DNA from: a virus
Lineage: Duplodnaviria > Heunggongvirae > Uroviricota > Caudoviricetes
Length of the DNA: 15,331 bases
IMG/VR virus record: IMGVR_UViG_2617270976_000002
Coordinates: 1-15,331 of that record
Strand: one strand, 5' to 3'
Both the position numbers and the translations under genes were made by a program. Shown one piece after another: positions 3,156 to 15,331 of this stretch (positions are counted from its first letter, which is position 1; every line of letters begins with the position of its first letter). The notes beneath the pieces were generated by a model, which saw only the letters and a list, made by a program, of their open reading frames with translations, ran no database searches and was not told where the DNA came from.

Positions 3156-3221
3156 GTGCGGGTGCGTTGAGGATGCCTGACACATCAGAGGTGGCGAGGG
3201 ATTTCTCCCCCGCCCGGTCTC

Positions 3222-3434: not shown

Positions 3435-3668
3435 AGATATGGCCTCAGATTAATGTTAAGCGTCTTGCCGGACGCGTAATGTTAACTGGGGCTTTTCTCT
3501 ATCTGCCTTTTGGTGTTCATGCCTGAGACAGATAGCCTCAAGCACCCGCTGCAATTCTACTTAACTCTCCTTTTCCCGCAAACCGTTTTTATCCCCAGCG
3601 GCAAATCGAATACACCACCAGCGCCACCGCCATCGCAATTCCTACCGTTGTTAATGCTTCAGGCCAGG

Positions 3669-3974
3669 TCATCGTAAAATATCCTCCACGCTTATCAGTC
3701 CGTTCCGCTCCAGATAACTCATCGCCTTATCCGGTAATTTGCAGTCTGGCTTCGCTTTCCTCAGTTGCCAGGTTAACTGCTTTACCAGCATGGTTAACTC
3801 ATCGACCAGACGCTGATATCCCACTGGTTTGTATTCATGCAATTTACCGGCTGGCTCTGCTGCCAGCGATGCCAGCGCAATCCGTGCCAGTTCCATTTGT
3901 TCACCACGGGTAAGCCCGTTTTCAAGCGGGTTTTTAATGAACAATTCAATACGTTCTTTGGTAATAGTGGTCAT
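3669..3974 (-). CDS. hypothetical protein (101 aa)
   Basis: Six-frame ORF with ATG start, same orientation as neighbours and tightly packed; no recognisable motif. Confidence 0.6.
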   Translation of the reverse strand: MTTITKERIELFIKNPLENGLTRGEQMELARIALASLAAEPAGKLHEYKPVGYQRLVDELTMLVKQLTWQLRKAKPDCKLPDKAMSYLERNGLISVEDILR

Positions 3975-3984
3975 GTGTTACTCC

Positions 3985-4248
3985 TTAACCCGCAGTGCTT
4001 TCAACTGATGAGGGGAACAAAATCTTTTCATCAAACCCTGCATTCATATCATGGACAGCAACACACCAATCCATTGACGAACGATTATCAAGAGCCTCCA
4101 TGATTTCATCCATGCGGCGCAGGTCATACAGGTAAATGCTTTTATCGCCAATGGTGTAAAAACCAATTTTTTTCGGTGATGGACAGCGATCAAGAACGTC
4201 CTGTAATTCGCTCAACCATGCTTGTTCTTTTTTTGTCAAAGTTGCCAT
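3985..4248 (-). CDS. hypothetical protein (87 aa)
   Basis: ORF with ATG start preceded by AAGGAGAG. Its 5' junction sequence is duplicated at the next gene upstream. Confidence 0.6.
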   Translation of the reverse strand: MATLTKKEQAWLSELQDVLDRCPSPKKIGFYTIGDKSIYLYDLRRMDEIMEALDNRSSMDWCVAVHDMNAGFDEKILFPSSVESTAG

Positions 4249-4249
4249 A

Positions 4250-4741
4250 TCACTCTCCTTTGATGCGAATGCCAGTGGTACTCATTCTCCTGATTTCCCA
4301 GAGCACACGAGGAACACCACCGTTTCCGACCGGATCGCGTTTACTCCGCAGGGCGACGCTTGATTCCGCCCAGCTTTTTCTTGGAGGAAGCTCTTTCACA
4401 CGAACAAAACCAGCTGCGCGGAGAGATGCTCCTGATTCATCTGCCTGGGTGTACGTAATACAACGTTGATAACCCATAGCCTTTGCTGCCCGCCAGACAG
4501 CACCATAAAGCGCGCTGTTAGCGTTGCGTTCTCCTGTGGTACATGTGCGATTTACTTCAAGCGTTAATCCATCGTCCAAATGTCGTGCAACAGGTCTACC
4601 GGCTGTCGCCACACCTATCAATTCTCCGGCATCATTTCTCAGACCAATGCTGAATTTATGCCCCACCGGGGGTTTATTGTGTCGGTGATGTCTGGATATA
4701 AACGCCTTCGCAACACGAAGAGTAACCGGTGAAATTTGCAT
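4250..4741 (-). CDS. hypothetical protein (about 163 aa), possibly acetyltransferase-like
   Basis: ORF track gives 4250..4780. The ATG at 4739-4741 (MQISPVTLRVAKAF…) has a strong AAGGAGAG RBS and sits 2 nt after the upstream stop, so I prefer it. C-terminal half (…NANSALYGAVWRAAKAMGYQRCITYTQADESGASLRAAGF…) vaguely resembles a GNAT-type motif. Confidence 0.55.
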   Translation of the reverse strand: MQISPVTLRVAKAFISRHHRHNKPPVGHKFSIGLRNDAGELIGVATAGRPVARHLDDGLTLEVNRTCTTGERNANSALYGAVWRAAKAMGYQRCITYTQADESGASLRAAGFVRVKELPPRKSWAESSVALRSKRDPVGNGGVPRVLWEIRRMSTTGIRIKGE

Positions 4742-4743
4742 TC

Positions 4744-5103
4744 TCACTCTCCTTTGATGCCAATGTTTACAGACTGGCAAGCCTCTTTGAGCACCCAGTC
4801 AACAGCGTCTTTCCATGCTCCGGTTTCGACTGGCGGATTCTCACGCTTTACCTGTTCATAAAAGCGCACAGCTTTAACCAGTCCTTCTGATGTCACCGAA
4901 GCTGGCGGGGCCGTGAATAACGCCTGAATTTCATAGTTTGGTCTGTCGTTACAATCCTCTTTTGTCGGGACATATTTCCAGTCACCAACCCACTGCTTCC
5001 CCTGAAAGTCTGTAACGCCTTTTTTCACGTAGCGATATCGCCATGCCACTGGTTTTGCCTGCCCTGCCTTTTCATGCCCTTCCTGATAATTAATCTCGCT
5101 CAT
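4744..5103 (-). CDS. hypothetical protein (119 aa)
   Basis: ORF with ATG start. Ends …NIGIKGE*, the same C-terminal pentapeptide and stop context as the 4250..4741 gene. Confidence 0.6.
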   Translation of the reverse strand: MSEINYQEGHEKAGQAKPVAWRYRYVKKGVTDFQGKQWVGDWKYVPTKEDCNDRPNYEIQALFTAPPASVTSEGLVKAVRFYEQVKRENPPVETGAWKDAVDWVLKEACQSVNIGIKGE

Positions 5104-5104
5104 T

Positions 5105-5276
5105 CATCGCCCCACTCATCACAATATGCTTCGACCGGTGTTTTCCCTGCTTCATAATCATCACGCCATGCTTCAGCATCAGCGGCACTTCCACCGCGTA
5201 ACTCTGCATAATCCATTAACAGTTCATGCCATTCTTCAAAACTGGCGTTATATTTAGTTGAACCAAAATCAGCCAT
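5105..5276 (-). CDS. small acidic protein (57 aa)
   Basis: Hand-translated, below the ORF-track cutoff: MADFGSTKYNASFEEWHELLMDYAELRGGSAADAEAWRDDYEAGKTPVEAYCDEWGDE. Start overlaps the upstream gene's stop by 8 nt; stop abuts the next start. Confidence 0.45.
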
Positions 5277-5451
5277 TTTGTTCTTCCTCTTCGTCTTTTA
5301 TTTCGTGGTATGAGTAATTGCAGTAGTTAAAGAAAATATCTTTAGCTTCATCCTGTATTTCATCTGGTGTTGCATCATCATCCACTTCGAATTCATCCTC
5401 GAAATCTCCACCGGCTATTCCCGTTTCAATAATTATTTTGAATTTTCGCAT
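5269..5451 (-). CDS. small highly acidic protein (60 aa)
   Basis: MRKFKIIIETGIAGGDFEDEFEVDDDATPDEIQDEAKDIFFNYCNYSYHEIKDEEEEQNG: about one third of residues are D or E. Confidence 0.5.
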   Translation of the reverse strand: MRKFKIIIETGIAGGDFEDEFEVDDDATPDEIQDEAKDIFFNYCNYSYHEIKDEEEEQNG

Positions 5452-5579
5452 TTCACTACCGCCCTTTCGGACGGCCTCCTGATGTTCTGAGGGTGCAGGA
5501 ATCCCTCCGGTTAAGGATTTAATAAAAATCGTTTCTGATTTAAATCTTCAGTATTTAGTTGTTAGTCGGTTTATAGCCT

Positions 5580-5891
5580 TTATGCTTCGGCCTTATTTCT
5601 CAGCCATACACAAACCGGGCCATCTTCGGTGTCATGTATTGAACCAATAAACCATCCATTGCCCTCTGGTCGTTCCGGTTCCCATGCAGAAATATCAGCA
5701 TCACACGCATCAAGGTCAGCACATCCTTCATCTCTGAAGCAGAGGACGTATTGAAGATTATTTTCCTCCATCCAGGCGTTAAACTCTTCCGTTGAAATAT
5801 ATTCCCGACCGTCACAGAATTTTTCATATTCAGGATGCGTCCAGTAGCCATATTCATCACGTACTACTGGTATTTCTTTAATTTCATTCAT
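5580..5891 (-). CDS. hypothetical protein (103 aa)
   Basis: ATG-start ORF whose start overlaps the upstream stop by 8 nt. Acidic and Trp-rich. The alternative frame 5600..5860 looks like a shadow. Confidence 0.6.
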   Translation of the reverse strand: MNEIKEIPVVRDEYGYWTHPEYEKFCDGREYISTEEFNAWMEENNLQYVLCFRDEGCADLDACDADISAWEPERPEGNGWFIGSIHDTEDGPVCVWLRNKAEA

Positions 5892-6138
5892 TTCTGTTCT
5901 CCCACGTTTTCAGACTTTCACCACAGAACGGACAAAATGAAACCCGAACTGGTAATTTAGAAAATTCACCGGAACGCAACATCACAAAATCAGGACCGCG
6001 AGTTAAACTCTCATTCCAGATTTTGTATATCAGCAGACCTTTTCGCATCGTGTATTCAGCATCACGCTCAAGGGACTTTGCCAGTGCTGCACATGGTTCT
6101 ATCTTGTTGCCATTAACCTGGCATTTTGATTCACTCAC
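5884..6138 (-). CDS. small zinc-ribbon-like protein (84 aa)
   Basis: Cys at both ends (…SKCQVNGNKIEPCAAL… and …SFCPFCGES…), i.e. CxxC-type pairs. Start overlaps the upstream stop (ATGA). Confidence 0.6.
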   Translation of the reverse strand: MSESKCQVNGNKIEPCAALAKSLERDAEYTMRKGLLIYKIWNESLTRGPDFVMLRSGEFSKLPVRVSFCPFCGESLKTWENRNE

Positions 6139-6563
6139 CGCACCACCTCCTCAAAATTCCCCTGATAAAACGCCAGTACACGCTGCATAGCTTCACTCTT
6201 CCGGCACTCGCGACAGATTATGTTTAGGCGCCTGTCGTAGCGGCGTATTTCGCCGTCTGGTAATAGCCAGATAAGGTCCGGATCAACCACAGATGGTTTC
6301 TTCAGCTTTGCCCTTGAGAGTTTTTTGCGGGCGTTTTGCCAGTCCTTGCGCGCCTGCTCAGACGGGAATACTCCGTAACCGGAATTGTAAACATCACCAC
6401 TGGCGGCCAGCTCCATGCATAAACGACCGACAGACGCATGACTGACACCAATTTCATCCGATAACTGCCGAATCGTGCCTCGTCCGTTAAGGCGTACGAA
6501 TTCCACGATCAGCCCCTTAATTTTTTCCCGCTCTTCTGGTGTAAATGCTCTTGTCATAAGCAC
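6135..6563 (-). CDS. HTH/winged-helix DNA-binding protein (142 aa)
   Basis: …GRGTIRQLSDEIGVSHASVGRLCMELAASGDV… has a helix-turn-helix pattern; basic C-terminal region. Confidence 0.6.
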   Translation of the reverse strand: MLMTRAFTPEEREKIKGLIVEFVRLNGRGTIRQLSDEIGVSHASVGRLCMELAASGDVYNSGYGVFPSEQARKDWQNARKKLSRAKLKKPSVVDPDLIWLLPDGEIRRYDRRLNIICRECRKSEAMQRVLAFYQGNFEEVVR

Positions 6564-6572
6564 CTCCGGAGA

Positions 6573-7316
6573 TCACTTTGTTGTCGGTGAATGAACCGGA
6601 ATATCAGCAATCGAACTGAAAATATCCCGGTGTTTATTCAGCTCCCGCAGCGCGGCGCAGACTCGCTCCCACTTCTGAACCTGACCTTTTGCCCGGCGCA
6701 GCTCACGGTTAGCCACATGCAGCGATGGTAAAATCAGACCATCCGGATGTTTTCTGGTGAACGACGGCTGTGACTGCACTGTGACCGCCACACTTTCCGT
6801 TTTTATTTCTTCCTGTGTTTCTGCTTCCCGAACTGGTAACGCAACACCTGCTGGCTGAGGAAAGGCTTTACCATCGGTTTCCGCTACGGATGCAGCTTCC
6901 GGCTCTGCCGGTAAATCAGCGCCCGGTATGCAGTAACGAAATTTACCGCCCTGATTCACGCGAATCAGACGCCCTTTGCTGATTGCCATGGCCAGCGATG
7001 AATTCGCCCGGCGGGAGGTAATCCCGAACATCAGTGCCAGCTCATCCGCCGTTTGTGGGCCATGTTGTTCAATCGCCTCAGTCAGCATTTGCGCTGTCAC
7101 TTTCGGTACCGGTGACACCGGTTCACTTTCACCAGCCTGAATCAGCCACCACATCGAACCCTTGTTATCCGCTTCACCGCGGCGCTTCAGTTTCCACAGT
7201 TCGTTGACCGCATCTTTACGGCTGATTCCAAGGCGGGCCGCCACTACCTGTGAAGAGGCTCTTTTCAGTGCTTTCAGTGCGTCAAATACGGTTTCCATTA
7301 AAATTTCCTCCGACAA
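6573..7316 (-). CDS. two-domain winged-helix protein (247 aa)
   Basis: Two HTH-like segments (…[26 protein letters not shown]… and …[30 protein letters not shown]…) separated by a Pro/Ala/Glu-rich linker. Lies immediately downstream of the P-like gene. Confidence 0.6.
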
Positions 7317-7331
7317 AATCGTTTCTCAGAT

Positions 7332-7997
7332 TCAAATAAAACCAGCTGCCTTCCGGCGTTCGTATTCCTGTTTCAGCCGTTCAATTGGCGTTGGCCCTTG
7401 CGGGTGTTTCGCCCCTTCCAGTTGTCGTCGCACTGGCGGAACACTCATCCCGTTACCAACATGCTTTGCCCATTTCGTCAGTTGCCGTTCTGCAAGTCGT
7501 TTTAACTCACCCTGCGTCATCTGGCGCTCAATCCCTCTGGTACGCATTTCGAGGCAGATGTGGTACAGCACAGGCTGTGGCCACGGGTATTTATCACTCC
7601 CGTCGTATCGCCAGGATTCATTGCGCCAGCGCCGGTACTCTTCCATCACTGCATCCACCGTAAGACCAAATGGATTTGCCCCACTCTCCGAAATCAGTGC
7701 AACAAACTCAGCCAGGTCCGGGGGCCACGTTTCACCCGCCCGGCAGCGGTCCATGCACTGACGGCAGACCAGCCGGATTTGCTGTTCAGTCATCGCGCCA
7801 ATCTGGGCAATCCAGAGCTTCGAAGGTGCGGCCCCGTTCTTCTGGGTCCAGCGGTTCGAATAAACCTCCCCCATGAGTTCCCACAGCTTCCAGACCGTTT
7901 CCGTCGCTGATAAATCCGTTTTCACGTTCCCACTGCTCACGTGCTGCCCGAATTTCCTGAACTGCCCGTGATGCGGTGCCACCTGGTGCTGCTGCAT
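7332..7997 (-). CDS. lambda-P-like replication protein (DnaB helicase loader); start uncertain
   Basis: …ETWPPDLAEFVALISE… and …YPWPQPVLYHICLEMRTRGIERQMTQGELKRLAERQLTKW… parallel lambda P (…PFLPSPGQFVAWCRE… and …YPWKSNAHYWLVTNLYQNMRANALTDAELRRKAADELVHM…, recalled). The longest ORF overlaps the O-like gene by about 210 nt; the true start is probably internal. Confidence 0.7.
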   Translation of the reverse strand: MQQHQVAPHHGQFRKFGQHVSSGNVKTDLSATETVWKLWELMGEVYSNRWTQKNGAAPSKLWIAQIGAMTEQQIRLVCRQCMDRCRAGETWPPDLAEFVALISESGANPFGLTVDAVMEEYRRWRNESWRYDGSDKYPWPQPVLYHICLEMRTRGIERQMTQGELKRLAERQLTKWAKHVGNGMSVPPVRRQLEGAKHPQGPTPIERLKQEYERRKAAGFI

Positions 7998-8832
7998 GGT
8001 TTACCCCCTTGCTGACTGGCTTAACCTGCGCCCTGACGTGATTTACGTGACGGGCGAATTTCTGCTCCCACTGAACCTGCGTGAAAACTTTCCCCTCCGC
8101 TGCCCAGTAGTCCCGGAAAGCGGCAAGTTCAGCAGGTGTAAATTCCGGCTCCGGCAAAGCCATCCCCCACAACGCAGCCCGTCGTCGAAAATCCGGCGAC
8201 GGATGCCAGTCATCGACCATCGGAAATTTCCCGATGGGTTCGCTCAGTCCATCCAGGGATGCAGGTTCTGCTGCCTGCAACGGCGTACCACTCGACTCAC
8301 TGGTCGGAGCACTCTCGCGCACGTGCGCGTTATGTGTGGGGTTTAATTCTTTATCTGTATCTTTATCTGTCGTGACTCGTCGTGACATGTCGTGACATAT
8401 GCGTGACTCGTCGTGACACCCCTCATTCTGTTTTCGTAATTTATCCCTCTCGCGCTGCGCTCTCTTGCGCTCTGCCGGGGATTTCGCGGTTTGTGAAACG
8501 TTGCCATTGTCCTCTTTCAGTACCTGGCGTTTTTCCCATCCGGTGATTAAATCTCCATCAAGTACCCGCCCCTGCATTGCCTGTAAAATTGAATCAATTA
8601 CTTCTTCCGTCACATCAAGCGCACTTGCTAAATCTTCCGTCGTGACATCAATGTGACCACGTAGTGACACGCCGTGACATGTCGTGACATTTCGTGACGC
8701 GTTCACCAGAAGGTGGATATACACCGCCATCACTGTTGCAATTGGCTGTCCTGACACCCTGGAAATTGTTCGCCACTTAGGATCATTTGGCATGTCATGC
8801 CATAACCTGAGCCAGGCATTAGCCATACTCAC
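7786..8832 (-). CDS. O-like replication initiator with DnaT-like C-terminal domain
   Basis: 348 aa. The C-terminal segment …IGKFPMVDDWHPSPDFRRRAALWGMALPEPEFTPAELAAFRDYWAAEGKVFTQVQWEQKFARH… closely parallels E. coli DnaT (…[62 protein letters not shown]…, recalled). Both iteron arrays lie inside this gene, and it sits directly upstream of the P-like gene. Confidence 0.8.
   Translation of the reverse strand: MSMANAWLRLWHDMPNDPKWRTISRVSGQPIATVMAVYIHLLVNASRNVTTCHGVSLRGHIDVTTEDLASALDVTEEVIDSILQAMQGRVLDGDLITGWEKRQVLKEDNGNVSQTAKSPAERKRAQRERDKLRKQNEGCHDESRICHDMSRRVTTDKDTDKELNPTHNAHVRESAPTSESSGTPLQAAEPASLDGLSEPIGKFPMVDDWHPSPDFRRRAALWGMALPEPEFTPAELAAFRDYWAAEGKVFTQVQWEQKFARHVNHVRAQVKPVSKGVNHAAAPGGTASRAVQEIRAAREQWERENGFISDGNGLEAVGTHGGGLFEPLDPEERGRTFEALDCPDWRDD
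8369..8417. repeat. iteron array A: five direct (G)TCGTGAC repeats at 10-11 bp phasing, next to an AT-rich tract
   Basis: CGTGAC at about 8371, 8381, 8391, 8402 and 8412. Preceded at 8341-8370 by an AT-rich tract containing a tandem CTTTATCTGT repeat. Located in the linker-coding middle of the O-like gene. Confidence 0.6.
8641..8698. repeat. iteron array B: six direct (C)GTGAC repeats at about 10 bp phasing
   Basis: GTGAC at about 8641, 8653, 8664, 8673, 8683 and 8693, plus one inverted copy (GTCAC) near 8612. Located in the N-terminal-domain coding part of the O-like gene. Confidence 0.55.
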
Positions 8833-8897
8833 CTCTTCTGATACCGAATCTTTTTACTCACGAATTACCGGAAGCGATCCGGTATGAATATTGTCAG

Positions 8898-9323
8898 TCA
8901 ATGCACAACCACAATATTTCCCGCCGGGCCACCACGATTCATCTGGTTGAAACCAGCGATCGCCACTGCGACAAAATCATCAGCGTCTCTCACCAGTCGT
9001 TCCCGCGTCTCCACCAGCTCCCGAAAATAAGCTGAACTGTGGCTGCGCATTCGGGCCACCAGCAGAGGCGGCATTGCTTTTTCGATCGCTGGTAACAACG
9101 CCTGAATTTTTTTAACCGCATCAGGAGTGTCTTTCTCCACCCAGCGGAAAATTTTCTGGGTATTGCGAGCCAGGGCTTCCGGATGGCTGTCGTCATATAA
9201 TTCCGGGAACGTCATACCAAGCTCAAAATAAGCCCGGGTTATTTCAGCTGCCGGAACTTTTTCACCGTCCGGATGCGCCCAGGCATTCATCGCCATGCGG
9301 ATGTGCTCATGCCTGATTTTCAT
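8898..9323 (-). CDS. YdaT-like protein (occupies the cII position)
   Basis: 141 aa. MKIRHEHI… start, internal …KKIQALLPAIEKAMPPLL… and C-terminal …VVVH resemble Rac prophage YdaT as I recall it. Start overlaps the Cro-like gene's end by 17 nt. Confidence 0.6.
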   Translation of the reverse strand: MKIRHEHIRMAMNAWAHPDGEKVPAAEITRAYFELGMTFPELYDDSHPEALARNTQKIFRWVEKDTPDAVKKIQALLPAIEKAMPPLLVARMRSHSSAYFRELVETRERLVRDADDFVAVAIAGFNQMNRGGPAGNIVVVH

Positions 9324-9582
9324 GAATCAACTCCGATGCATTTGGTGTGTTAGCCTTGAATCCAACAGGTAAGCCGTCGGTTGGATTCGGGTAAATATCA
9401 GGCCGGAGTTCATGAGGTGTAACCTCGAAATTCGTTACTTCAGCAACACGTAATGCTTTTTCAGGGCTGAATCTTTCATAGCCCCCCAGCACTCGACTTA
9501 CATGCACCTGAGATAAACCCGTTAGCTTCCCAAACTGTAGCTGGGTGATATGTTTCTCTTTTAAATAGTCTCTTAAGTTCAT
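9307..9582 (-). CDS. Cro-like HTH protein (YdaS-type)
   Basis: ORF track start is a TTG at 9588; I prefer the ATG at 9580-9582 (MNLRDYLKEKHITQLQFGKLTGLSQVHVSRV…), which has a GAAGG RBS. HTH near the N-terminus; …ELRPDIYPNP… resembles the ELRPDI motif of YdaS (recalled). Divergent from the repressor gene. Confidence 0.7.
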   Translation of the reverse strand: MNLRDYLKEKHITQLQFGKLTGLSQVHVSRVLGGYERFSPEKALRVAEVTNFEVTPHELRPDIYPNPTDGLPVGFKANTPNASELIHENQA

Positions 9583-9689
9583 AGCCAACCTTCTACGTTA
9601 TGCCCCGAGCAAATATTAGCCCCACTAATTTTAAAGATCAATAGCCAGGCTATCTTTGATAATATCGGTAAAACAAATAAACTCTATGT
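9583..9689. promoter_or_regulatory. immunity-region control region: divergent promoters with TAGCC-type operator half-sites
   Basis: Leftward promoter on the minus strand: TTGATC (9636-9641), 17 nt, TAATAT (9613-9618). Rightward extended -10 TGaTAATAT at about 9657-9665. Perfect palindrome ATAGCCAGGCTAT at 9641-9653, with related sites TTAGCCCCACTAA (9616-9628) and ATAGCCAACC (9581-9590). Confidence 0.5.
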
Positions 9690-10151
9690 ATGAAAAAAAC
9701 ACGCGAAGTGATTGCAACTCCAGCAGCGAGCAAGAATTTAAAAGCCGCATGGAATGCAAGAAAAAAAGAGCTGAAGCTGACTCAAGAGCTGGCGGCTGAG
9801 TTGTTGGGATTCGAATCTCAAGGCACCGTTAGCCAGTATCTGAACGGCAAGATACCGGTAAATACCGACGCTGCGCTAAAATTTGCGGCTCTGTTAAAGG
9901 TAAAACCAGAGGACATTCGAGAAGACCTTAAAGACTTAATGAATTATGTAAGATCATCAGATACTTATGATGATAGCTTTTCAGGCAAAGGATGGAGGCT
10001 GGTCAATGAAGAACAGGCAGAGTTACTTAACCTCTTCGAGATTCTACCTGCGTCAGAAAAAGCCAAACTCCTTAACCAGCTACGTGGACTAAACAAGCTC
10101 TACGAGGAAGCCTTCGAGAACATGCTGGCACTAAAGAAACGTAACCAGTAG
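9690..10151 (+). CDS. DicA-like prophage repressor (HTH_XRE, no S24 peptidase domain)
   Basis: 153 aa. HTH …LTQELAAELLGFESQGTVSQYLNG…; C-terminal …ELLNLFEILPASEKAKLLNQLRGLNKLYEEAFENMLALKKR parallels the DicA C-terminus (…ELLELFNALPESEQDTQLAEMRARVKNFNKLFEELLKARQR, recalled). No Ala-Gly/Ser-Lys autocleavage module is visible. Confidence 0.75.
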   Translation: MKKTREVIATPAASKNLKAAWNARKKELKLTQELAAELLGFESQGTVSQYLNGKIPVNTDAALKFAALLKVKPEDIREDLKDLMNYVRSSDTYDDSFSGKGWRLVNEEQAELLNLFEILPASEKAKLLNQLRGLNKLYEEAFENMLALKKRNQ

Positions 10152-10176
10152 CCACCGCTCACTACCCCATCCACAA

Positions 10177-10207
10177 CAAAAAAACCGACGTCTTAGTCGG
10201 TTTTTTT
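10177..10207 (+). terminator. intrinsic terminator after the repressor gene
   Basis: AAAAAAA-CCGAC-GTCTTA-GTCGG-TTTTTTT: symmetric A-tract, stem and U-tract, about 25 nt after the stop. Confidence 0.65.
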
Positions 10208-10304
10208 GTGCCATAACTTCTGCAAATCAGCTGTATAACTAATATTTTTCCCTTGAAAAAACATTTACATAGTTACCAAATCAAAAATATCATACGCCAT
10301 ACTG

Positions 10305-10333
10305 TTGACTTAAAATATCCGTGTTACTAATAT
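10305..10333 (+). promoter_or_regulatory. strong sigma70-type promoter for the ydfA-dicF-dicB operon
   Basis: TTGACT (10305-10310), 17-nt spacer, TAATAT (10328-10333). The first gene starts about 70 nt downstream. Confidence 0.5.
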
Positions 10334-10404
10334 TTCTATCAAGAACAACACGGCGCTGTAGGTTTTAGTTCCGCCACCCGGCGTTAAGGGGAAATGAGGT
10401 CAAC

Positions 10405-10557
10405 ATGGATATGCTCAATCTTGGCAACAACGAATCTCTGGTATGTGGTGTGTTCCCCAACCAGGACGGCACATTCACCGCGATGACGTATACCAAAAGT
10501 AAAACGTTTAAAACCGCAGCTGGCGCGCATCGCTGGTTAGCAAGAAACACTGACTGA
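10405..10557 (+). CDS. ydfA: YdfA-like small protein (50 aa)
   Basis: Hand-translated, below the ORF-track cutoff: MDMLNLGNNESLVCGVFPNQDGTFTAMTYTKSKTFKTAAGAHRWLARNTD, with GAGGT RBS. Size and position (first gene after the DicA-like repressor) match Qin ydfA. Replaces the antisense ORF 10365..10550. Confidence 0.55.
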   Translation: MDMLNLGNNESLVCGVFPNQDGTFTAMTYTKSKTFKTAAGAHRWLARNTD

Positions 10558-10568
10558 TGAGGTTGACG

Positions 10569-10907
10569 ATGGAATTTAAAGATTTACCTCCTTCAATCCA
10601 GGAGATTGCAGCACACACGCTTCGTCATCGTCTGAACGAACTTGAATTGGAATCGGTAACAAAAAAAGACACTGATAATATGGCTCGTAATGTGCGCGAT
10701 GCGTTTACTGGGCTGTTTTCAGATACAGCTTTAAATATCCATGGCACAGAGGATACAGCAAAACAATTTGCAGAAAAAGAAGTGGAAGATCCCAGTTCAA
10801 AGAGCCAGAAACAGCCAAACAACCATGAAATTAACGAACTGCTTCTGGCAACAGGCTTCATAAATATTAACGAATATGAACGCCGTAAAAAAATGTTATC
10901 TGATTAA
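10569..10907 (+). CDS. hypothetical protein (112 aa)
   Basis: ORF track gives a TTG start at 10557; the ATG at 10569 (MEFKDLPPSIQEIAAHTL…) is preferred. Acidic and Lys-rich; occupies the ydfB/ydfC position. Confidence 0.55.
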   Translation: MEFKDLPPSIQEIAAHTLRHRLNELELESVTKKDTDNMARNVRDAFTGLFSDTALNIHGTEDTAKQFAEKEVEDPSSKSQKQPNNHEINELLLATGFININEYERRKKMLSD

Positions 10908-11090
10908 TCCATCAAGATATCTTTTTAGCATCAGCGTTTCTACGTTATTAAAACCATCAGATTTTAACATAGCTTCGATTCGCTGATTTAAATTGCCAAC
11001 TAACTGTTGATACTGAGTAGATGGAAGCATGTGTACCAGCTCCTTGAGAACACAATAACATGCACCAAGTTTTAACTCCTGCTCTGACAT
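10896..11090 (-). CDS. small convergent ORF (64 aa) on the strand opposite the operon
   Basis: MSEQELKLGACYCVLKELVHMLPSTQYQQLVGNLNQRIEAMLKSDGFNNVETLMLKRYLDGLIR with GGAGGA 4 nt upstream. The plus strand is closed in all frames here. Tail-to-tail overlap of 12 nt with the 112-aa gene. Confidence 0.4.
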   Translation of the reverse strand: MSEQELKLGACYCVLKELVHMLPSTQYQQLVGNLNQRIEAMLKSDGFNNVETLMLKRYLDGLIR

Positions 11091-11429
11091 TTTATCCTCC
11101 ATTGAGGTTACTGGTTGAGAATGGAGACCTCTCGTGACAGCGTGTGGTCGTGCGCCGGACACGGATAAGAATCCGGCACTGACAGTTTACTGAAAGGATA
11201 TTTCCCTGAAAAGTCAGACCATAACGCGACAGCGCACGGCGAGGTAGCTGGTTCATAGATAGCCTGTCGTTAAATTTTCGTCGACCGTGCGCTTCCGGTT
11301 GTGGCAATCCGCGAAATGGCGCGGCGGTAAGTATGGCGGGGTTATTCCTTCCCCCGTTGAGGACACCGGGTTGTCAGGTTGACCATACGCTTAAGTGACA
11401 ACCCCGCTGCAACGCCCTCTGTTATCAAT

Positions 11430-11487
11430 TTTCTGGTGACTTTTGGCGGTATCAGTTTTACTCCGTGACTGCTCTGCCGCCCTTTTT
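11430..11487 (+). ncRNA. dicF: DicF small RNA (ftsZ-targeting sRNA of Qin-type prophages)
   Basis: TTTCTGGTGACTTTTGGCGGTATCAGTTTTACTCCGTGACTGCTCTGCCGCCC followed by TTTTT matches my recollection of the 53-nt E. coli DicF almost base for base. The 3' GGCGG…CCGCC stem plus U-tract forms its terminator. Confidence 0.8.
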
Positions 11488-11768
11488 AAAGTGAATTTTG
11501 TGATGCGGTGAATGCGGCTGAGCGCACGCGGAACAGTTAAAACCAAAAACAGTGTTATGGGTGGATTCTCTGTATCCGGCGTTAATTGTTAACTGGTTAA
11601 CGTCACCTGGAGGCACCAGGCACCGCATCAACAAAGTTCACTTCGGTGATGAAAGGTAAGAGAAAATGTTGAATGTAGCTATTGAAAACCAGAACGGGTG
11701 GAATTATAGTGCACCTGCACCTCATAAAACGGGTGCCGGGCGTGGAAACCCGAAATCATTCACGGCGC

Positions 11769-11795
11769 ATAACCGCGCTCAGGCGGTTTTTTTAT
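11769..11795 (+). terminator. intrinsic terminator or attenuator in the rha leader
   Basis: AACCGC-GCTCAG-GCGGTT followed by TTTTTTT, nested in a longer inverted repeat (GCGCATAA…TTATGCG). About 170 nt upstream of the rha start. Confidence 0.45.
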
Positions 11796-11962
11796 GCGTT
11801 AAGCACAGCCACATTCGCATTATGGTGGGGCGTGCAGGGCAGCCGCAAGGCTGGCCGGGTTCCGTGATGACCGGTATTTCCACCCCTGTACGTCTCACCA
11901 CCCTTATGGTCGTGGAAAACCTCGGTGGTGAGTTAATCAAATTCATCGCGGAGGCTGCCATC

Positions 11963-12520
11963 ATGGCTACTATCCTTACCCTTTCTCACCCTGACGTAAC
12001 CATCGAAAATGGTCGCGCTGTCACTACGTCTGTTGCGATCGCCGAGTTCTTTGGCAAACGCCACGAACGAGTGTTGGATAAAATTCGCAATCTGGACTGT
12101 TCAGCAAAATTCACTGAGCACAATTTTGTGTCGAGCGAATACACCGACTCAACCGGGCGCAAACTCCCAATGTACCAAATCACCAAAAACGGCTTCGTTT
12201 TCCTGGTGATGGGGTTCACAGGTAAAAAAGCCGCAACTTTCAAAGAAGCCTACATCGCTGAGTTCGATCGCATGGAGGAAGAACTGCGCCAGAATAACGC
12301 CCCGTCTCCCGACAAAATGATTCACGGGGACGGACGCACCCTGGTTATCCGTCTCGACGAACACGGCAATATCAAATTCACTGAAACCGTTCCTGACGGC
12401 GCAATGGTCTGCACCCTGGATACCTTCCGGTTTTATCTGGAGAAACAAGGATGGACTCTTGTAAACCGGAGCGCAATTAAAAATATGACTGTGGAGCAAT
12501 TGCTAAAAATTCATTGTTGA
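11963..12520 (+). CDS. rha: Rha-family phage regulatory protein
   Basis: ORF track gives 11666..12520. The ATG at 11963 (MATILTLSHPDVTIENGRAVTTSVAIAEFFGKRHERVLDKIRNL…) has a GGAGG RBS 8 nt upstream and puts the pRha-type domain at the N-terminus, as in this family. The upstream 99 codons are Gly/Arg/Pro/His-rich and span a terminator. Confidence 0.7.
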   Translation: MATILTLSHPDVTIENGRAVTTSVAIAEFFGKRHERVLDKIRNLDCSAKFTEHNFVSSEYTDSTGRKLPMYQITKNGFVFLVMGFTGKKAATFKEAYIAEFDRMEEELRQNNAPSPDKMIHGDGRTLVIRLDEHGNIKFTETVPDGAMVCTLDTFRFYLEKQGWTLVNRSAIKNMTVEQLLKIHC

Positions 12521-12530
12521 GGACGCGATA

Positions 12531-12719
12531 ATGGAAACGTCACTACCAAACGTTAATACGTCTGACGGGTGCTTTAATATTGGTGTTCTGCTCAGTAACA
12601 GGGATTTCACCGAGGATGCAATCAATATGAGAAAATATGAACCCTACCTGCTGAATGACAATTCCATACTCTCCAGAATTGCCCTTCTTAAACTCGGTAT
12701 TTTCGGAGAGTGGCGATGA
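12531..12719 (+). CDS. dicB: DicB-like cell-division inhibitor
   Basis: METSLPNVNTSDGCFNIGVLLSNRDFTEDAINMRK… parallels E. coli DicB (MKTLLPNVNTSEGCFEIGVTISNPVFTEDAINKRK…, recalled). 62 aa, GAGGA RBS, start 11 nt after the rha stop. Confidence 0.85.
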   Translation: METSLPNVNTSDGCFNIGVLLSNRDFTEDAINMRKYEPYLLNDNSILSRIALLKLGIFGEWR

Positions 12720-12919
12720 ACACATTATTCGTACTCATTCTGACTGTACATCTCAATACTGGTGAGTCGCTTGATGCAATCACCGGCATGTACAACTCAA
12801 TGAAAGAATGCATGGCTGCCGCAGCGGAACAGAAAATTCCCGGCAACTGTTATCCGGTCGATAAAGTTATTCACATGGACAATAACGAAATCCCGGCAGG
12901 ATTAAAAACAGCGCCGTAA
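12716..12919 (+). CDS. ydfD: YdfD-like small membrane protein
   Basis: MNTLFVLILTVHLNTGESLD…MKECMAAAAEQKIPGNCYPVDKVIHMDNNEIPAGL resembles Qin YdfD (recalled). Hydrophobic N-terminus; start overlaps the dicB stop. ORF track start is a GTG at 12710. Confidence 0.7.
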   Translation: MNTLFVLILTVHLNTGESLDAITGMYNSMKECMAAAAEQKIPGNCYPVDKVIHMDNNEIPAGLKTAP

Positions 12920-12998
12920 TTAATATCCAGTTTCATTTTTATATGCCAGCAATGGCAGGGATTTGTTCACCCTTAAATCTGTAATGAGGTAAAACAAA

Positions 12999-15331
12999 AT
13001 GAGTAAAGTCTTTATTTGCGCTGCTATTCCTGATGAACAGGCCATAAAAGAAGATAGCGCTGTTGCGGTGGCCACTGCCATTGAAGCTGGTGATGAGCGT
13101 CGCGCACGCGCAAAATTTCATTGGCAATTTCTGGAGCAATTCCCTGCAGCTCAGGACTGCGCTTATAAATTTATTGTCTGTGAGGATAAACCCGGCATAC
13201 CCCGCCCTGCCCTCGATTCCTGGGATGCTGAATATATGCAGGAAAACCGCTGGGATGAGGAGTCTGCTTCCTTTGTCCCGGTTGAGACTGAATCAGATCC
13301 GATGAACGTCACTTTTGACAAGCTGGTCCCTGAAGTACAGAACGCTGTCATGGTTAAGTTCGACACATGTGAAAACATCACCGTTGATATGGTTATTAGC
13401 GCACAGGAATTGTTGCAGGAAGACATGGCAACATTCGACGGACATATCGTTGAAGCGTTGATGAAAATGCCAGAAGTTAACGCCATGTATCCGGAGCTTA
13501 AGTTGCACGCCATTGGGTGGGTTAAGCATAAATGTATTCCTGGTGCTAAATGGCCCGAAATTCAGGCAGAGATGCGCATCTGGAAAAAACGTCGCGAAGG
13601 TGAACGCAAGGAAACCGGAAAATACACGTCTGTTGTTGATCTCGCCCGCGCCAGAGCCAATCAACAGTACACTGAAAATTCAACAGGAAAAATCAGCCCG
13701 GTCATTGCTGCCATTCATCGCGAATACAAGCAGACATGGAAAACACTGGATGACGAACTGGCCTACGCTCTCTGGCCTAGTGATGTGGATGCCGGAAACA
13801 TTGACGGCAGCATCCATCGCTGGGCAAAAAAAGAAGTTATCGACAACGACCGCGAAGACTGGAAGCGTATCTCGGCATCAATGCGCAAACAGCCTGATGC
13901 CCTTCGCTACGACCGCCAAACTATTTTTGGCCTTGTCCGTGAGCGTCCGATCGACATTCACAAAGATCCCGTAGCACTGAACAAATATATCTGCGAATAC
14001 CTGACGACAAAGGGCGTGTTTGAGAATGAAGAAACAGACCTGGGCACTGTTGATGTTCTCCAGTCATCAGAAACACAAACTGATGCAGTGGAAACTGAGG
14101 TATCTGATATCCCAAAAAATGAAACCGCGCCGGAAGCTGAACCATCTGTAGAGCGTGAGGGGCCGTTCTATTTCCTCTTCGCAGATAAGGACGGAGAAAA
14201 ATACGGTCGCGCAAACAAACTCTCTGGTCTGGATAAGGCACTGGCTGCTGGCGCCACTGAAATCACAAAAGAAGAATATTTTGCCCGAAAAAATGGCACA
14301 TACACGGGCTTACCGCAAAATGTAGATACCGCTGAAGATTCAGAACAACCAGAGCCGATAAAAGTTACCGCTGACGAAGTAAACAAAATTATGCAGGCAG
14401 CCAATATCAGCCAGCCTGACGCCGATAAGTTGCTTGCTGCATCACGTGGTGAATTTGTTGAAGGGATTAGTGACCCGAATGATCCGAAATGGGTTAAGGG
14501 GCTCCAGACCCGCGATTCTGTGAACCAGAACCAGCATGAATCGGAACGGAACTACCAAAAAGCGGAACAAAACAGTCCAAATGCGTTACAAAACGAGCCA
14601 GAAACGAAACAGCCTGAACCAGTAGCGCAACAGGAAGTGGAAAAAGTCTGCACCGCCTGCGGTCAGACCGGCGGCGGCAACTGCCCTGATTGTGGCGCGG
14701 TGATGGGCGACGCAACATACCAAGAAACATTCGATGAAGAGTATCAGGTTGAAGTTCAGGAAGATGATCCGGAGGAAATGGAAGGCGCTGAACATCCACA
14801 CAAGGAGAACACTGGCGGCAATCAGCATCACAATAGCGATAATGAAACTGGCGAGACGGCAGATCACCCAATTAAGGTGAACGGTCATCACGAAATCACA
14901 TCCACCAGCAGGACGTGTGACCATCTAATGATCGACCTTGAAACCATGGGAAAAAATCCTGATGCCCCGATCATCTCAATAGGTGCAATATTTTTCGATC
15001 CGCAAACCGGAGATATGGGACCGGAATTTAGTAAGACTATCGATCTGGAAACTGCTGGCGGAGTCATTGATCGGGACACCATTAAATGGTGGCTTAAGCA
15101 ATCACGCGAAGCGCAATCTGCCATTATGACCGATGAAATCCCGTTAGATGATGCACTGTTACAATTGCGGGAATTTATCGACGAAAACTCCGGTGAATTT
15201 TTTGTTCAGGTCTGGGGAAATGGAGCCAACTTCGACAACACGATTTTGCGCCGTTCATACGAACGGCAGGGGATCCCCTGCCCGTGGCGTTACTACAACG
15301 ATCGCGATGTACGCACAATCGTTGAGCTGGG
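12999..15331 (+). CDS. RecE/YdfE-like large early protein (exodeoxyribonuclease VIII-like), 3' end outside the window
   Basis: Hand-translated frame with ATG at 12999-13001 and GAGG RBS, open for at least 777 codons to the window edge. All ORF-track entries in 13063-15124 are short shadows in other frames. N-terminus MSKVFICAAIPDE… matches recalled Qin YdfE; …DADKLLAASRGEFVEGISDPNDPKWVKGLQTRD… matches a recalled RecE segment. The C-terminal part (…HLMIDLETMGKNPDAPIISIGAIFFD…) looks like a DEDD-type 3'-5' exonuclease. Confidence 0.8.
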   Translation, partial: MSKVFICAAIPDEQAIKEDSAVAVATAIEAGDERRARAKFHWQFLEQFPAAQDCAYKFIVCEDKPGIPRPALDSWDAEYMQENRWDEESASFVPVETESDPMNVTFDKLVPEVQNAVMVKFDTCENITVDMVISAQELLQEDMATFDGHIVEALMKMPEVNAMYPELKLHAIGWVKHKCIPGAKWPEIQAEMRIWKKRREGERKETGKYTSVVDLARARANQQYTENSTGKISPVIAAIHREYKQTWKTLDDELAYALWPSDVDAGNIDGSIHRWAKKEVIDNDREDWKRISASMRKQPDALRYDRQTIFGLVRERPIDIHKDPVALNKYICEYLTTKGVFENEETDLGTVDVLQSSETQTDAVETEVSDIPKNETAPEAEPSVEREGPFYFLFADKDGEKYGRANKLSGLDKALAAGATEITKEEYFARKNGTYTGLPQNVDTAEDSEQPEPIKVTADEVNKIMQAANISQPDADKLLAASRGEFVEGISDPNDPKWVKGLQTRDSVNQNQHESERNYQKAEQNSPNALQNEPETKQPEPVAQQEVEKVCTACGQTGGGNCPDCGAVMGDATYQETFDEEYQVEVQEDDPEEMEGAEHPHKENTGGNQHHNSDNETGETADHPIKVNGHHEITSTSRTCDHLMIDLETMGKNPDAPIISIGAIFFDPQTGDMGPEFSKTIDLETAGGVIDRDTIKWWLKQSREAQSAIMTDEIPLDDALLQLREFIDENSGEFFVQVWGNGANFDNTILRRSYERQGIPCPWRYYNDRDVRTIVEL

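Follow-up and report, generated by a model that had tools for sequence, protein, structure and literature searches.

A probable RNA-immunity cassette of the P1 immI/P4/Gifsy-1 isrK type upstream of rha, between dicF and dicB of a lambdoid dicBF operon

Introduction

In phages P1 and P7, the C4 RNA of the immI region (c4 - icd - ant) is released from the operon transcript by cleavage (in P1, RNase P makes the cut) and represses downstream translation, with Rho-dependent polarity as a further effect. This class of mechanism has reportedly been known since work on P1 c4 in 1990. In phage P4, where the order is seqA - CI RNA/seqB - seqC, the immunity factor is the CI RNA and not a protein, and it acts by making transcription of the replication operon terminate early.

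A third system is found in Gifsy-1, where isrK is followed by orf45 (STnc1160), anrP and isrJ. Read-through from the IsrK promoter makes the mRNA of this locus, and IsrK in trans raises the translation of anrP ~100-fold, pairing with the orf45/STnc1160 region (PMC4825925). The mapped start of orf45 (Hershko-Shalev et al. 2016, PMC4825925) is an AUG that falls in the C4 5' arm.

The dicBF operon of the K-12 prophage Qin (ydfABC - dicF - dicB - ydfD) is the closest described relative of the genomic surroundings considered here; its dicF occupies positions 1649382-1649434 of K-12 and its dicB starts at 1649609. The present work concerns a window of 15,331 nucleotides, that is, the whole stretch of caudoviral DNA that was analysed, in which the interval between dicF and dicB also holds an rha gene. 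We propose, with a probability of roughly 0.85, that positions 11631-11962 of the window represent an RNA-immunity cassette of the P1 immI/P4/Gifsy-1 isrK type, which controls rha and forms one block with it.

The Block between dicF and dicB

The elements framing this interval, and the block within it, are as follows:

11431-11482, plus strand: DicF sRNA (Rfam RF00039; 75.8 bits, gathering threshold 48)
11483-11630, plus strand: ancestral dicF-dicB spacer, outside the rha block (~99% identical to K-12 Qin)
11631-12505, plus strand: block absent from K-12 Qin, comprising the promoter, isrK, C4, the target sites and rha (K-12 alignment)
11963-12520, plus strand: rha, 185 aa (Pfam PF09669 Phage_pRha, 4.7e-31; ATG behind a Shine-Dalgarno sequence)
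12531-12719, plus strand: dicB (Pfam DicB, 1.3e-32; K-12-shared from ~12503)

The gap between dicF and dicB amounts to 1048 nt in the window versus 174 nt in K-12 Qin, in agreement with an earlier sequence-only reading of the locus, which had set about 1 kb here against about 200 nt or less in Qin. The dicF of the window, with a T-run (11483-11487) directly 3' of DicF, is 98% identical to K-12 dicF. In the pairwise alignment, an identity of ~99% to K-12 extends from 5' of dicF up to ~11630, and similarity returns at ~12503 with the ribosome-binding site of dicB (AAAATTCATTGTTGAGGACGCGATAATG). The additional sequence therefore corresponds to ~11631-12505, or ~875 bp, and rha is indeed an addition between dicF and dicB, as had been supposed from the letters. 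The attribution of the gap to a gene of the Rha family holds as well, the residues encoded from 11963 to 12517 matching Phage_pRha, with the domain itself at residues 21-106 of the 185-aa Rha.

The distance from dicF to dicB thus exceeds the ~200 nt or less of the Qin type, while the remaining parts of the operon are all present: dicF, the repeat-bearing spacer, the dicB ribosome-binding site, dicB and a DUF1482 gene are collinear in K-12 Qin and in the window. Unlike the window, where the ~875-bp block follows the long stem of the spacer, K-12 Qin contains no rha, isrK or C4. At the right end of the block, rha and dicB meet closely, the stop codon of the former (12518-12520) coinciding in part with the Shine-Dalgarno sequence of the latter; the final ~15 nt of rha belong to K-12-shared sequence. 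An imperfect direct repeat is found at both block junctions (ACAAAGTTCAC / AAAAATTCAT). This repeat and the K-12-shared end of rha would be compatible both with an insertion in the window and with a deletion in K-12.

Two repeats pointed out in the sequence-only reading are located in the spacer preceding the block. The first consists of three copies of GTTAA at 11581-11600, with inter-copy spacings of 2 and 3 nt (one match in the window, none in 200 shuffles), while the second, according to direct reading of the sequence, has its CCTGG arm at 11606-11610 and its CCAGG arm at 11616-11620. Both elements are real; however, they had been taken for parts of an rha leader, whereas the alignment places them in the K-12-type spacer. 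Since they lie in the K-12-shared stretch and are both kept in 62 of 67 related spacers, we regard them as parts of the old spacer and not of the rha block. The same spacer holds the 5' arm (11489-11510) of a long stem, the 3' arm of which (11621-11643) crosses the left junction; the RNA fold of 11483-11640 reaches -58.9 kcal/mol (z = -4.9). A repeat scan listed the inverted repeats I1 and I2 in this spacer.

RNA Genes and Target Sites

The part of the block lying upstream of rha contains the following elements:

11682-11710, plus strand: predicted isrK promoter (TTGAAA, 17-nt spacer, TATAGT; 10/12 in a consensus scan)
11717-11793, plus strand: IsrK-type sRNA (Rfam RF01394; 67.7 bits, threshold 50; all model positions covered, 1-77 of 77)
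11818-11905, plus strand: C4-type antisense RNA (Rfam RF01695, clan CL00128; 81.9 bits, threshold 45; all model positions covered, 1-87 of 87)
11912-11918, plus strand: a2 target site, GUGGAAA (complementary to a'; 7/7 complement in 27/27 homologues, 7 a-types)
11943-11954, plus strand: b2 target site (b2 itself at 11943-11951, UCAUCGCGG; overlaps the rha Shine-Dalgarno sequence GGAGG at 11950-11954)

The IsrK and C4 matches, each of full length, are found on one strand and 24 nt apart. IsrK of the window corresponds to P1 a1b1 and to P4 seqA, and the C4-type RNA to P4 CI and Salmonella STnc1160. The distance from the end of the -10 hexamer (11705-11710) of the predicted isrK promoter to IsrK position 1 is 7 nt, and a TAnAnT hexamer occupies the matching alignment columns of mEp460, phiP27 and Gifsy-1. 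It is also important to mention that similarity to Stx phages, mEp460, phiP27 and Salmonella phages begins at 11714-11718, which coincides with IsrK +1. A search of 11631-11716 for an operator-like repeat returned just a weak 11-nt direct repeat, probably due to chance, and a C1-type operator was not found at the isrK promoter.

The intrinsic terminator reported in the sequence-only reading was recovered by the terminator scan, with a stem at 11771-11788 (AACCGC/GCGGTT) and seven T at 11787-11793. Judging by its sequence and position, it would be the 3' end of the IsrK sRNA; distant IsrK homologues keep a GC-rich hairpin and a T-run, although their sequences differ. The predicted elements thus provide IsrK with what defines its short form, a promoter of its own and a Rho-independent terminator.

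Within IsrK, we located site a1 at 11742-11748 (GUGGAAA) and site b1 at 11756-11765 (UCAUUCACGG). In the C4-type RNA, an outer stem of 17 bp (11823-11839 with 11884-11900) encloses two hairpins; b' (11862-11870, CCGUGAUGA) occupies the loop of hairpin 2, and a' (11877-11883, UUUCCAC) the 3' junction. Both b' and a' are complementary not only to a1/b1 in IsrK but also to a2/b2 downstream. The score, the stem, the correspondence of a'/b' to a2/b2 and the upstream a1/b1 copy are those of a C4 of the P1 immI type. Calculated duplex energies were -31.0 and -27.5 kcal/mol for cognate partners versus -18.8 and -18.4 kcal/mol for non-cognate ones, the first member of each pair referring to the complementarity between the mid-region of IsrK and the downstream orf45/STnc1160 region.

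The fold and co-variation of the leader, suggested as a check in the sequence-only reading, were both computed. The fold of 11717-11970 has an energy of -110.3 kcal/mol (z = -4.5 versus shuffled sequences), and co-variation was assessed in an alignment of 27 homologues. Taken together, the internal stems of IsrK and C4 are 98.3% paired, with 15 of 39 pairs changed on both sides; the C4 outer stem alone is 99.6% paired (8 pairs changed on both sides), and in C4 hairpin 1, four of the five pairs have changed on both sides.

The same holds for pairing between the separate sites. The a1-a' duplex is 100% paired, and 6/7 of its pairs have changed on both sides. For b1-b', the paired fraction is 89%; jointly, the two reach 94.0%, against 67.4% in shuffles (0/500 reach the observed value) and 31-50% with slid partners. 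For b'-b2, 88.0% of positions are paired versus 63.8% in shuffles (again 0/500), and 8/9 pairs have changed on both sides. The a2-a' pairing was scored by an anchor-free best-complement search and not by alignment columns, because MAFFT introduces a gap of 3 nt inside a2. Across the 27 homologues, 7 a-types and 14 b-types co-change at all three sites: every a-type has its cognate a1 and a2 (7/7 match), and each of the 14 b-types its cognate b2 (9/9 match, or 8/8 for Gifsy-1, where b' is 8 nt long). The b1 site matches 9/9 without gaps, except in Gifsy-1 and in window-like b' sequences, where there is a 1-nt bulge. Another b-type, CUCUAGUGA, occurs in variant L047.

Reading Frame Upstream of rha

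One further element needs to be introduced here:

11822-11962, plus strand: counterpart of Gifsy-1 orf45, with its AUG in the C4 5' arm (ATGGTGGGGCGT common with Gifsy-1; frame analysis)

PGAP calls a gene of 284 aa at 11666-12520 (WP_000935598.1), and the translation of 11666-11962 matches Phage_ASH (PF10554; 55.3 bits against a gathering score of 26; 1e-14). The true rha ATG is 11963, consistent with the sequence-only reading, in which the region upstream of rha ended at 11962. That reading was also right in calling this region open in frame and not protein-like: variable columns by codon position 1/2/3 number 37/36/35 in the leader versus 39/30/83 in the rha coding sequence, and third-codon-position variation begins only at 11963.

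The frame from ATG 11666 is open in 34/38 variants, with 0 stops where the other frames contain 4-12; for the window alone, shuffling puts the probability of an open frame at 0.04, so some translation through the 11666-rha region may be under selection. Conservation of this ATG, and of the open frame behind it, is confined to the dicF-linked lineage, and the frame is broken in L019, L041, L057, Gifsy-1 and P1, which speaks against a conserved, translated extension from ATG 11666, the outcome named in the sequence-only reading as incompatible with a leader. Neither the third-position excess nor the frame conservation of a sequence evolving as a protein is therefore seen in the Phage_ASH part.

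Several observations accompany the PGAP call on the side of a coding region, namely that in mEp460 and phiP27, the frame is open as well, with the annotated ORF start overlapping the stop of the upstream gene, and that the indels in the a2 region measure 3 nt. Yet variation is concentrated in patches that coincide exactly with the RNA pairing sites and change complementarily, the predicted promoter and the terminator lie inside the supposed ORF, and the frameshifted natural variants (L019, L041 and L057) keep their RNA elements intact. Phage_ASH also matches the obsolete "cI gene product" ORF of P4, which holds the Rfam C4 match. Overall, the N-terminal "extension" (284-aa Rha, Phage_ASH) is best read as translated RNA genes, and the annotation as 284-aa "Rha family" protein, "Ash family protein" or PF10554 is probably wrong, apparently representing the translation of two sRNA genes and their targets.

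The shorter frame from AUG 11822 runs into rha without a stop, so the counterpart of orf45 is an in-frame fusion and not an ORF with an AUGA overlap. The 40 unique Rha-type cassettes are heterogeneous in this respect: 24 are in-frame fusions, in 5 the stop overlaps or abuts the start, and 11 show neither arrangement.

Discussion

Our comparison with P1 relies on the annotated P1 record and PMC8201110. The immI region of P1/P7 and the window share the same order, with near-same spacing, of promoter, a1, b1, C4 (b', a'), a2, b2 and regulated gene. In both, the distance from the -10 hexamer to a1 is 32 nt, 10-11 nt separate the end of b2 from the ATG (10 nt in P1, where the gene is icd), C4 scores above the Rfam threshold, and the operon includes a cell-division inhibitor, icd in P1 and dicB in the window. 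The two differ in the first regulated gene, which is rha (Phage_pRha) in the window versus icd/ant in P1, and in the a1b1 element, which in the window has a clear intrinsic terminator and an IsrK score above the Rfam threshold, whereas the a1b1 region of P1 scores 35.1 bits. Their settings differ too, the cassette of the window belonging to a lambdoid dicBF early-left operon and that of P1 to a plasmid prophage.

In Gifsy-1, as in the window, IsrK comes with its own promoter and a terminator that is leaky (by prediction in the window), the downstream C4-like RNA begins with ATGGTGGGGCGT and IsrK is complementary to that region, and an antirepressor-like gene (putatively so in the window) follows. 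Gifsy-1, too, has perfect a1/a2 and b1/b2 sites, its b2 abutting the anrP Shine-Dalgarno sequence. However, orf45 of Gifsy-1, a 45-codon ORF, ends in an AUGA overlap with anrP, which allows translational coupling; such coupling is absent from the window, since there the ORF is fused in frame with rha. The Gifsy-1 locus is situated after antQ in the late region, and that of the window between dicF and dicB. At the nucleotide level, the isrK and rha sequences of the window gave no match to Gifsy-1, and the C4 part alone aligned (79-80% identity). We considered whether Rha might be an AnrP orthologue and rejected this at the domain level, as AnrP has an ORF6N N-terminal domain and Rha of the window is a Phage_pRha protein, with weak similarity in the C-terminal part alone (E = 0.003).

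P4 shows the order of the window, its IsrK scoring 60.8 bits and its C4 74.9 bits, and by analogy the two may share one logic, in which a processed RNA is flanked up- and downstream by sites complementary to it. Its corresponding conceptual ORF was also mistaken for a protein (Pfam Phage_ASH). The genes downstream are epsilon and alpha in P4 and rha in the window.

It should be added that the published models stand apart, with C4 repressing in P1 and IsrK activating in Gifsy-1, and that the Rha family differs from P1 Ant and from Gifsy-1 AnrP (ORF6N); both points were counted against the cassette reading. Elsewhere, C4-type cassettes precede genes for Rha, Bro-N, ORF6N, P4-epsilon-like Derepression and Icd/Ant proteins. 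By analogy, the guarded gene of the window would fall into the antirepressor/derepression class, much as the sequence-only reading had it.

Such evidence induces us to propose the following scenario. A constitutive-looking sigma-70 promoter would start transcription at ~11717, and most transcripts would end at the intrinsic terminator, giving an IsrK sRNA of ~77 nt that carries a1 and b1. Transcripts that escape termination would extend across the C4-type RNA to rha, and probably reach dicB and the sequence after it. The exposed elements of C4, b' in the loop of the second hairpin and a' in the 3' junction, would then pair with a2/b2 upstream of rha, and, since the GGAGG Shine-Dalgarno sequence lies partly inside b2, the resulting duplex is proposed to block rha translation; on the P1 model, Rho-dependent polarity on downstream genes may follow. 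IsrK would compete for C4 via the same two sites, in cis on the read-through RNA or in trans as the short sRNA. Because IsrK carries the a and b sites, we suppose that the IsrK:C4 balance may decide whether Rha is made. The start of transcription, the efficiency of termination and the processing of C4 at this locus are predictions, and for C4 processing, the direction of regulation, an antirepressor-like role of Rha and any effect on dicB, we follow what is described for P1, P7, P4 and Gifsy-1.

A variation of this scenario, possible though on balance rather unlikely, is that the cassette has a dual use, translation from AUG 11822 into rha either unfolding the a2/b2/Shine-Dalgarno region or yielding a 232-aa Rha isoform. 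Gifsy-1 uses the counterpart AUG, and translation of orf45 is needed there for anrP activation (PMC4825925). The AUG and the open frame are kept in most E. coli variants, and the proportion of fusions, 24/40, exceeds our rough chance expectation of ~10%, although the cassettes are related and not independent. However, the AUG lies in the conserved 5' arm of C4, where the Rfam consensus reads UUAUGG; conservation of this RNA arm is enough to account for the AUG without any coding role. Moreover, no Shine-Dalgarno sequence stands ahead of AUG 11822, the P1 frame stops after 14 codons, 16 of the 40 Rha-type cassettes are unfused, and rha has a start of its own, ATG 11963 with a strong Shine-Dalgarno sequence ahead of it.

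We consider it very improbable that the 470 nt upstream of rha act as a cis-acting attenuation or riboregulatory leader of the dicBF transcript, in which the hairpin at 11771-11795 would terminate transcription conditionally, while GTTAA and CCTGG would serve for sensing or binding. The terminator is real, the fold of 11717-11970 lies far below that of shuffled sequences, and transcripts from the dicBF promoter could enter the block too; in the Gifsy-1 homologue, read-through of the terminator is needed for downstream gene expression (PMC4825925). Against this, GTTAA and CCTGG are present in K-12-type spacers without rha, the cassette has its own predicted promoter, and it is found in many other genomic contexts, where it begins at IsrK +1. 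The matches are to trans-acting RNA families, the window showing no Rfam cis-regulatory family at the gathering threshold, and three separate sites co-vary, which would not be expected of a simple terminator/antiterminator pair. What stands from the sequence-only reading is therefore the RNA-regulatory character of the region; the idea of an undescribed cis attenuator yields to the IsrK and C4 matches and to the promoter predicted at 11682-11710. On this evidence, we take the cassette for a known trans-acting riboregulator system with a promoter of its own, not for a new attenuator.

Scarcely credible is a protein-coding nature of the region, that is, a 284-aa Rha with an N-terminal "Ash" domain and incidental RNA-family matches, because, for all its open frame, it shows no third-codon-position excess, its frame is closed in Gifsy-1 and P1, and in-frame fusions make up just 24 of the 40 Rha-type cassettes.

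If the cassette reading is accepted, what looked like an odd leader becomes a fully parsed and testable regulatory unit, its sites named to the base. This does not overturn current understanding, the mechanism class being already known from P1 c4. The probable misannotation (284-aa Rha, Ash family, PF10554) touches many enterobacterial prophage annotations, while the 7 a-types and 14 b-types with their matched targets provide a ready natural series for the specificity of C4-type RNA immunity. It is tempting to go further and to suppose, tentatively and with the odds somewhat against us, that the a and b sites constitute many orthogonal, reassorting specificities (at least 7 a-types and at least 14 b-types), that cassettes switch independently and that dicB is under the C4/IsrK switch. 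If so, several Rha/antirepressor cassettes in co-resident prophages would be switched separately, and the Qin-type division inhibitor dicB and later genes would be RNA-switched, mirroring icd in the P1 c4 operon; as a corollary, Phage_ASH and the long PGAP Rha models would be translations of RNA genes. The presence of the block between DicF and DicB could also change the timing of DicB expression.

Finally, we would like to comment on the occurrence of this arrangement. Of 5426 complete E. coli genomes, 400 contain the left junction with the block at a query coverage of at least 80%, and 4215 the K-12-type junction. Strains B19374 (NZ_CP142915.1) and CFSAN067215 are among the carriers of the block. 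We are thus dealing with a minority form of dicBF, present in ~7% of complete E. coli genomes, in which an apparently RNA-gated gene of antirepressor type with its own predicted promoter is placed between DicF and DicB. The maximum coverage of the window by any complete E. coli genome is 84%. The best genome match to 10900-13000 is that of strain B19374, and, as the annotation of B19374 does not span the whole window, the neighbouring ORFs were checked by Pfam directly.

An extra block between dicF and dicB

The gap between dicF and dicB spans 1048 nt in the window versus 174 nt in the Qin prophage of E. coli K-12 (dicF end, 1649434; dicB start, 1649609). In a pairwise alignment identity is ~99% over a stretch that opens upstream of dicF and runs to ~11630; it resumes at ~12503, in the dicB ribosome-binding region. 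We therefore delimit an extra block of ~875 bp (~11631-12505), in agreement with the sequence-only reading, which placed rha in an enlarged gap relative to Qin; the block may have been gained in this lineage or lost from K-12. At its two ends stand the copies of an imperfect direct repeat (ACAAAGTTCAC / AAAAATTCAT). Its left junction occurs in 400 of 5426 complete E. coli genomes, the K-12-type junction in 4215. The final ~15 nt of rha (AAAATTCATTGTTGA) lie within K-12-shared sequence, and the rha stop codon and the dicB Shine-Dalgarno overlap there (12503-12531). Since a literature search found no description of this block in the dicBF operon, what is new here is context and annotation, not mechanism.

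Features of the dicF-dicB interval in the window
11431-11482, +, DicF RNA (Rfam)
11581-11600, threefold GTTAA repeat (none in 200 shuffles)
11606-11620, CCTGG/CCAGG inverted repeat
11682-11710, predicted sigma-70-like promoter TTGAAA-17-TATAGT, ending 7 nt before IsrK position 1
11717-11793, +, isrK (Rfam 67.7 bits, threshold 50)
11742-11748, a1, GUGGAAA, in IsrK
11756-11765, b1, in IsrK
11771-11788, stem of intrinsic terminator, plus seven T; IsrK 3' end
11818-11905, +, C4 antisense RNA (Rfam 81.9 bits, threshold 45)
11862-11870, b', CCGUGAUGA, C4 hairpin-2 loop
11877-11883, a', UUUCCAC, in C4
11912-11918, a2, GUGGAAA, downstream of C4
11943-11951, b2, UCAUCGCGG, downstream of C4
11950-11954, rha Shine-Dalgarno GGAGG
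11963-12517, rha, ATG 11963 (Pfam Phage_pRha, 4.7e-31)
12531-12719, +, dicB (Pfam)

The GTTAA and CCTGG/CCAGG repeats, earlier counted as part of the rha leader, are present as described, but both fall within the K-12-shared part and are kept in 62 of 67 related spacers. Judging by this distribution, they are parts of the older spacer between dicF and dicB and not of the rha block. The spacer (11483-11643) is strongly structured (fold z = -4.9): a long stem of ~22 bp (11489-11510 with 11621-11643) encloses a GTTAA hairpin and a CCTGG/CCAGG hairpin and ends at the left edge of the block, with the rha block directly after it. This stem may serve as a processing stem for DicF maturation.

An isrK-C4 cassette upstream of rha

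Within 11491-11962, an Rfam scan at curated thresholds called two RNA genes on the + strand, isrK and C4. The region had been read as an attenuation or riboregulatory leader of rha; its RNA-regulatory nature stands, but it holds two known RNA genes with a predicted promoter of their own. The intrinsic terminator and the Rha-family gene recognized by eye were both recovered. Other phages (Stx phages, mEp460, phiP27, Salmonella phages) resemble this sequence from 11714-11718, the IsrK +1 position, onward.

In P1/P7, the immI operon is repressed by the antisense RNA C4. The P1 record is annotated in the order two promoters, a1, b1, c4, a2, b2 and icd start; Rfam scores there are 68.8 bits for C4, 35.1 bits for isrK on the a1b1 element and 51.0 bits for c4-a1b1, and in P4 they are 74.9, 60.8 and 44.1 bits, respectively. 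Judged by the isrK-model scores on P1 a1b1 and on P4, IsrK is the a1b1/seqA element plus a terminator, and the window has the whole cassette. P1 and the window share a distance of 32 nt from the -10 element to a1 and a b2 end 10-11 nt before the start codon; they differ in the regulated gene, and the window promoter has no identifiable repressor operator. At the sequence level all testable defining features were found, which places the locus in the C4/IsrK cassette family. An earlier catalogue (PMC2864571) records c4 and c4-a1b1 motifs as widespread among phages and Proteobacteria. The P1 c4 operon includes the division inhibitor icd, a parallel to isrK-C4-rha-dicB beside dicF in the window, and a "dicF-like region" is annotated in P1 (23791-23892 of locus L087, 68791-68892 of the P1 record).

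In Gifsy-1 of Salmonella, the isrK promoter yields a short sRNA, and transcripts that run past the terminator form an isrK-orf45-anrP mRNA; the orf45 region gives rise to the processed RNA STnc1160, and pairing of short IsrK with this region raises translation of the antirepressor-like AnrP ~100-fold (PMC4825925). The authors also remarked on the likeness of the locus to P4 seqA and CI (PMC4825925). The window differs from Gifsy-1 in the N-terminal domain of the regulated protein and in genomic position. Moreover, the AUG inside C4 at 11822, whose Gifsy-1 counterpart is the mapped orf45 start (PMC4825925), is fused in frame to rha in the window, while Gifsy-1 has an AUGA overlap; translation from this AUG might play a part in the window too.

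Complementary sites and their co-variation

We compared 80 IMG/VR loci encoding close Rha relatives. Nearly all keep the order dicF, spacer, promoter block, isrK, C4, rha. Where it was detected, the promoter block showed 94-100% identity; isrK and C4 range from 76% to 100%, with variation clustered in six short patches that are complementary in threes (sets a and b). The rha Shine-Dalgarno begins with the final two bases of b2.

In an alignment of 27 sequences, including mEp460, phiP27 and Gifsy-1, a1-a' was paired in 100% of cells, with 6 of 7 pairs changed on both sides, and b1-b' in 89% (7 of 9). Together they reached 94.0%, versus 67.4% when shuffled (0/500) and 31-50% when slid. The b'-b2 pairing stood at 88.0% (8 of 9 changed on both sides; shuffled 63.8%, 0/500) and the internal IsrK and C4 stems at 98.3% (15 of 39; shuffled 94.6%, 0/500). 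We distinguished 7 a-types and 14 b-types, all matched by perfect cognate a1, a2 and b2 sites; b1 is perfect too, except with the window-like b' (1-nt bulge) and in Gifsy-1. The a- and b-types occur in reassorted combinations. For the C4 core, predicted duplex energies were -31.0 kcal/mol with cognate IsrK versus -18.8 ± 4.9 for non-cognate combinations, and -27.5 versus -18.4 ± 3.9 kcal/mol with the downstream sites. In two loci (L048, L056) a gene of this Rha family follows an unrelated leader, lacking IsrK and C4, in the ~340 nt ahead of rha (1160-1500 of the locus), and dicF is ~1.3 kb upstream.

The open frame upstream of rha

The stretch ahead of rha could instead encode an N-terminal extension of Rha from ATG 11666, an outcome that the sequence-only reading named as refuting its leader; PGAP calls a 284-aa Rha from this ATG. 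Translated conceptually, 11666-11962 gives a Pfam Phage_ASH (PF10554) match at 1e-14, the frame is stop-free in 34 of 38 variants against 4-12 stops in other frames (shuffling P = 0.04, window alone), and still longer fused ORFs are annotated in mEp460 and phiP27. However, variable columns fall evenly on the three codon positions (37/36/35, versus 39/30/83 in rha), and the variable residues coincide exactly with the positions of RNA pairing. The RNA elements survive in natural frameshift variants (loci L019, L041, L057), and the frame is closed in both Gifsy-1 and P1, the latter having a stop after 14 codons. DNA pattern retrieval gave 92 unique C4 cassettes; only 24 of the 40 followed by a Rha gene are fused in frame. 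Finally, an obsolete P4 ORF, "cI gene product (AA 1-137)", matches Phage_ASH and contains an Rfam C4 match, and in P4 it is the CI RNA that confers immunity. A genuine protein extension is thus very improbable, the earlier impression of a non-protein-like frame was sound, and we conclude that "Ash" is a translated RNA cassette.

Phage_ASH likewise matches translated IsrK, C4 and a2/b2 in two further loci (L004, 2141-2746; L006, 2447-2758); the P4 ORF lies at 8168-8584 (- strand) of locus L208, with the C4 match at 8420-8507. PF10554 and the PGAP calls of long Rha and "Ash family protein" look like translated RNA genes. The isrK and C4 Rfam matches of E. coli O157 were among ncRNAs left out of a published analysis, ribosome footprints being expected on them; reasons for exclusion included same-strand position within annotated genes (PMC5331693).

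Proposed mechanism

The window and its homologues display the family membership, the promoter and terminator placement, the pairings and the co-variation on which the following scheme, the most likely one, builds. Transcription would start at ~11717 and mostly terminate, giving IsrK, and the read-through RNA would hold C4, a2/b2, rha and probably dicB. Pairing of C4 with a2/b2 would occlude the rha Shine-Dalgarno; IsrK would compete for the C4 elements and relieve repression. We infer from P1, P4 and Gifsy-1 that RNA processing and Rho-dependent polarity would take part, in which direction control runs, what Rha does and how dicB might be affected. A derepression role would fit Rha, because C4 cassettes elsewhere precede genes of the Rha, Bro-N, P4-epsilon-like "Derepression", Icd-like and ORF6N families.

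Cassette diversity and the surrounding prophage

One might speculate, though we lean against it, that DicB is gated by the block and that the numerous a/b types serve co-resident prophages as orthogonal immunity groups. Tandem pairs of C4 cassettes occur in some prophages, and some genomes have several cassettes (L081 at 945 and 1359, L042 at 1359 and 2889, L138, L143, L146; same-genome pairs L037/L041 and L014/L091). Most co-resident cassettes have different a' or b' types, an anecdotal hint at orthogonal specificities; the first cassettes of L042 and L081 come from the same genome and are identical. In locus L117 and 14 similar IMG/VR loci, a small P4-epsilon-like protein (Pfam Derepression, 6e-08) is encoded after one class of C4 cassette, and an ORF of ~148 codons without Pfam match runs from the C4 AUG over its gene, out of frame.

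The prophage is a mosaic; any complete E. coli genome covers at most 84% of 1-15331 at megablast level. In the immunity region lie an HTH repressor (9690-10148), oppositely oriented YdaS/YdaT-like genes and, before dicF, a ydfA-like DUF1391 gene. A sok antitoxin RNA match (3372-3547, - strand, 117.1 bits, Rfam RF01794) indicates a hok/sok-type module elsewhere in the prophage.
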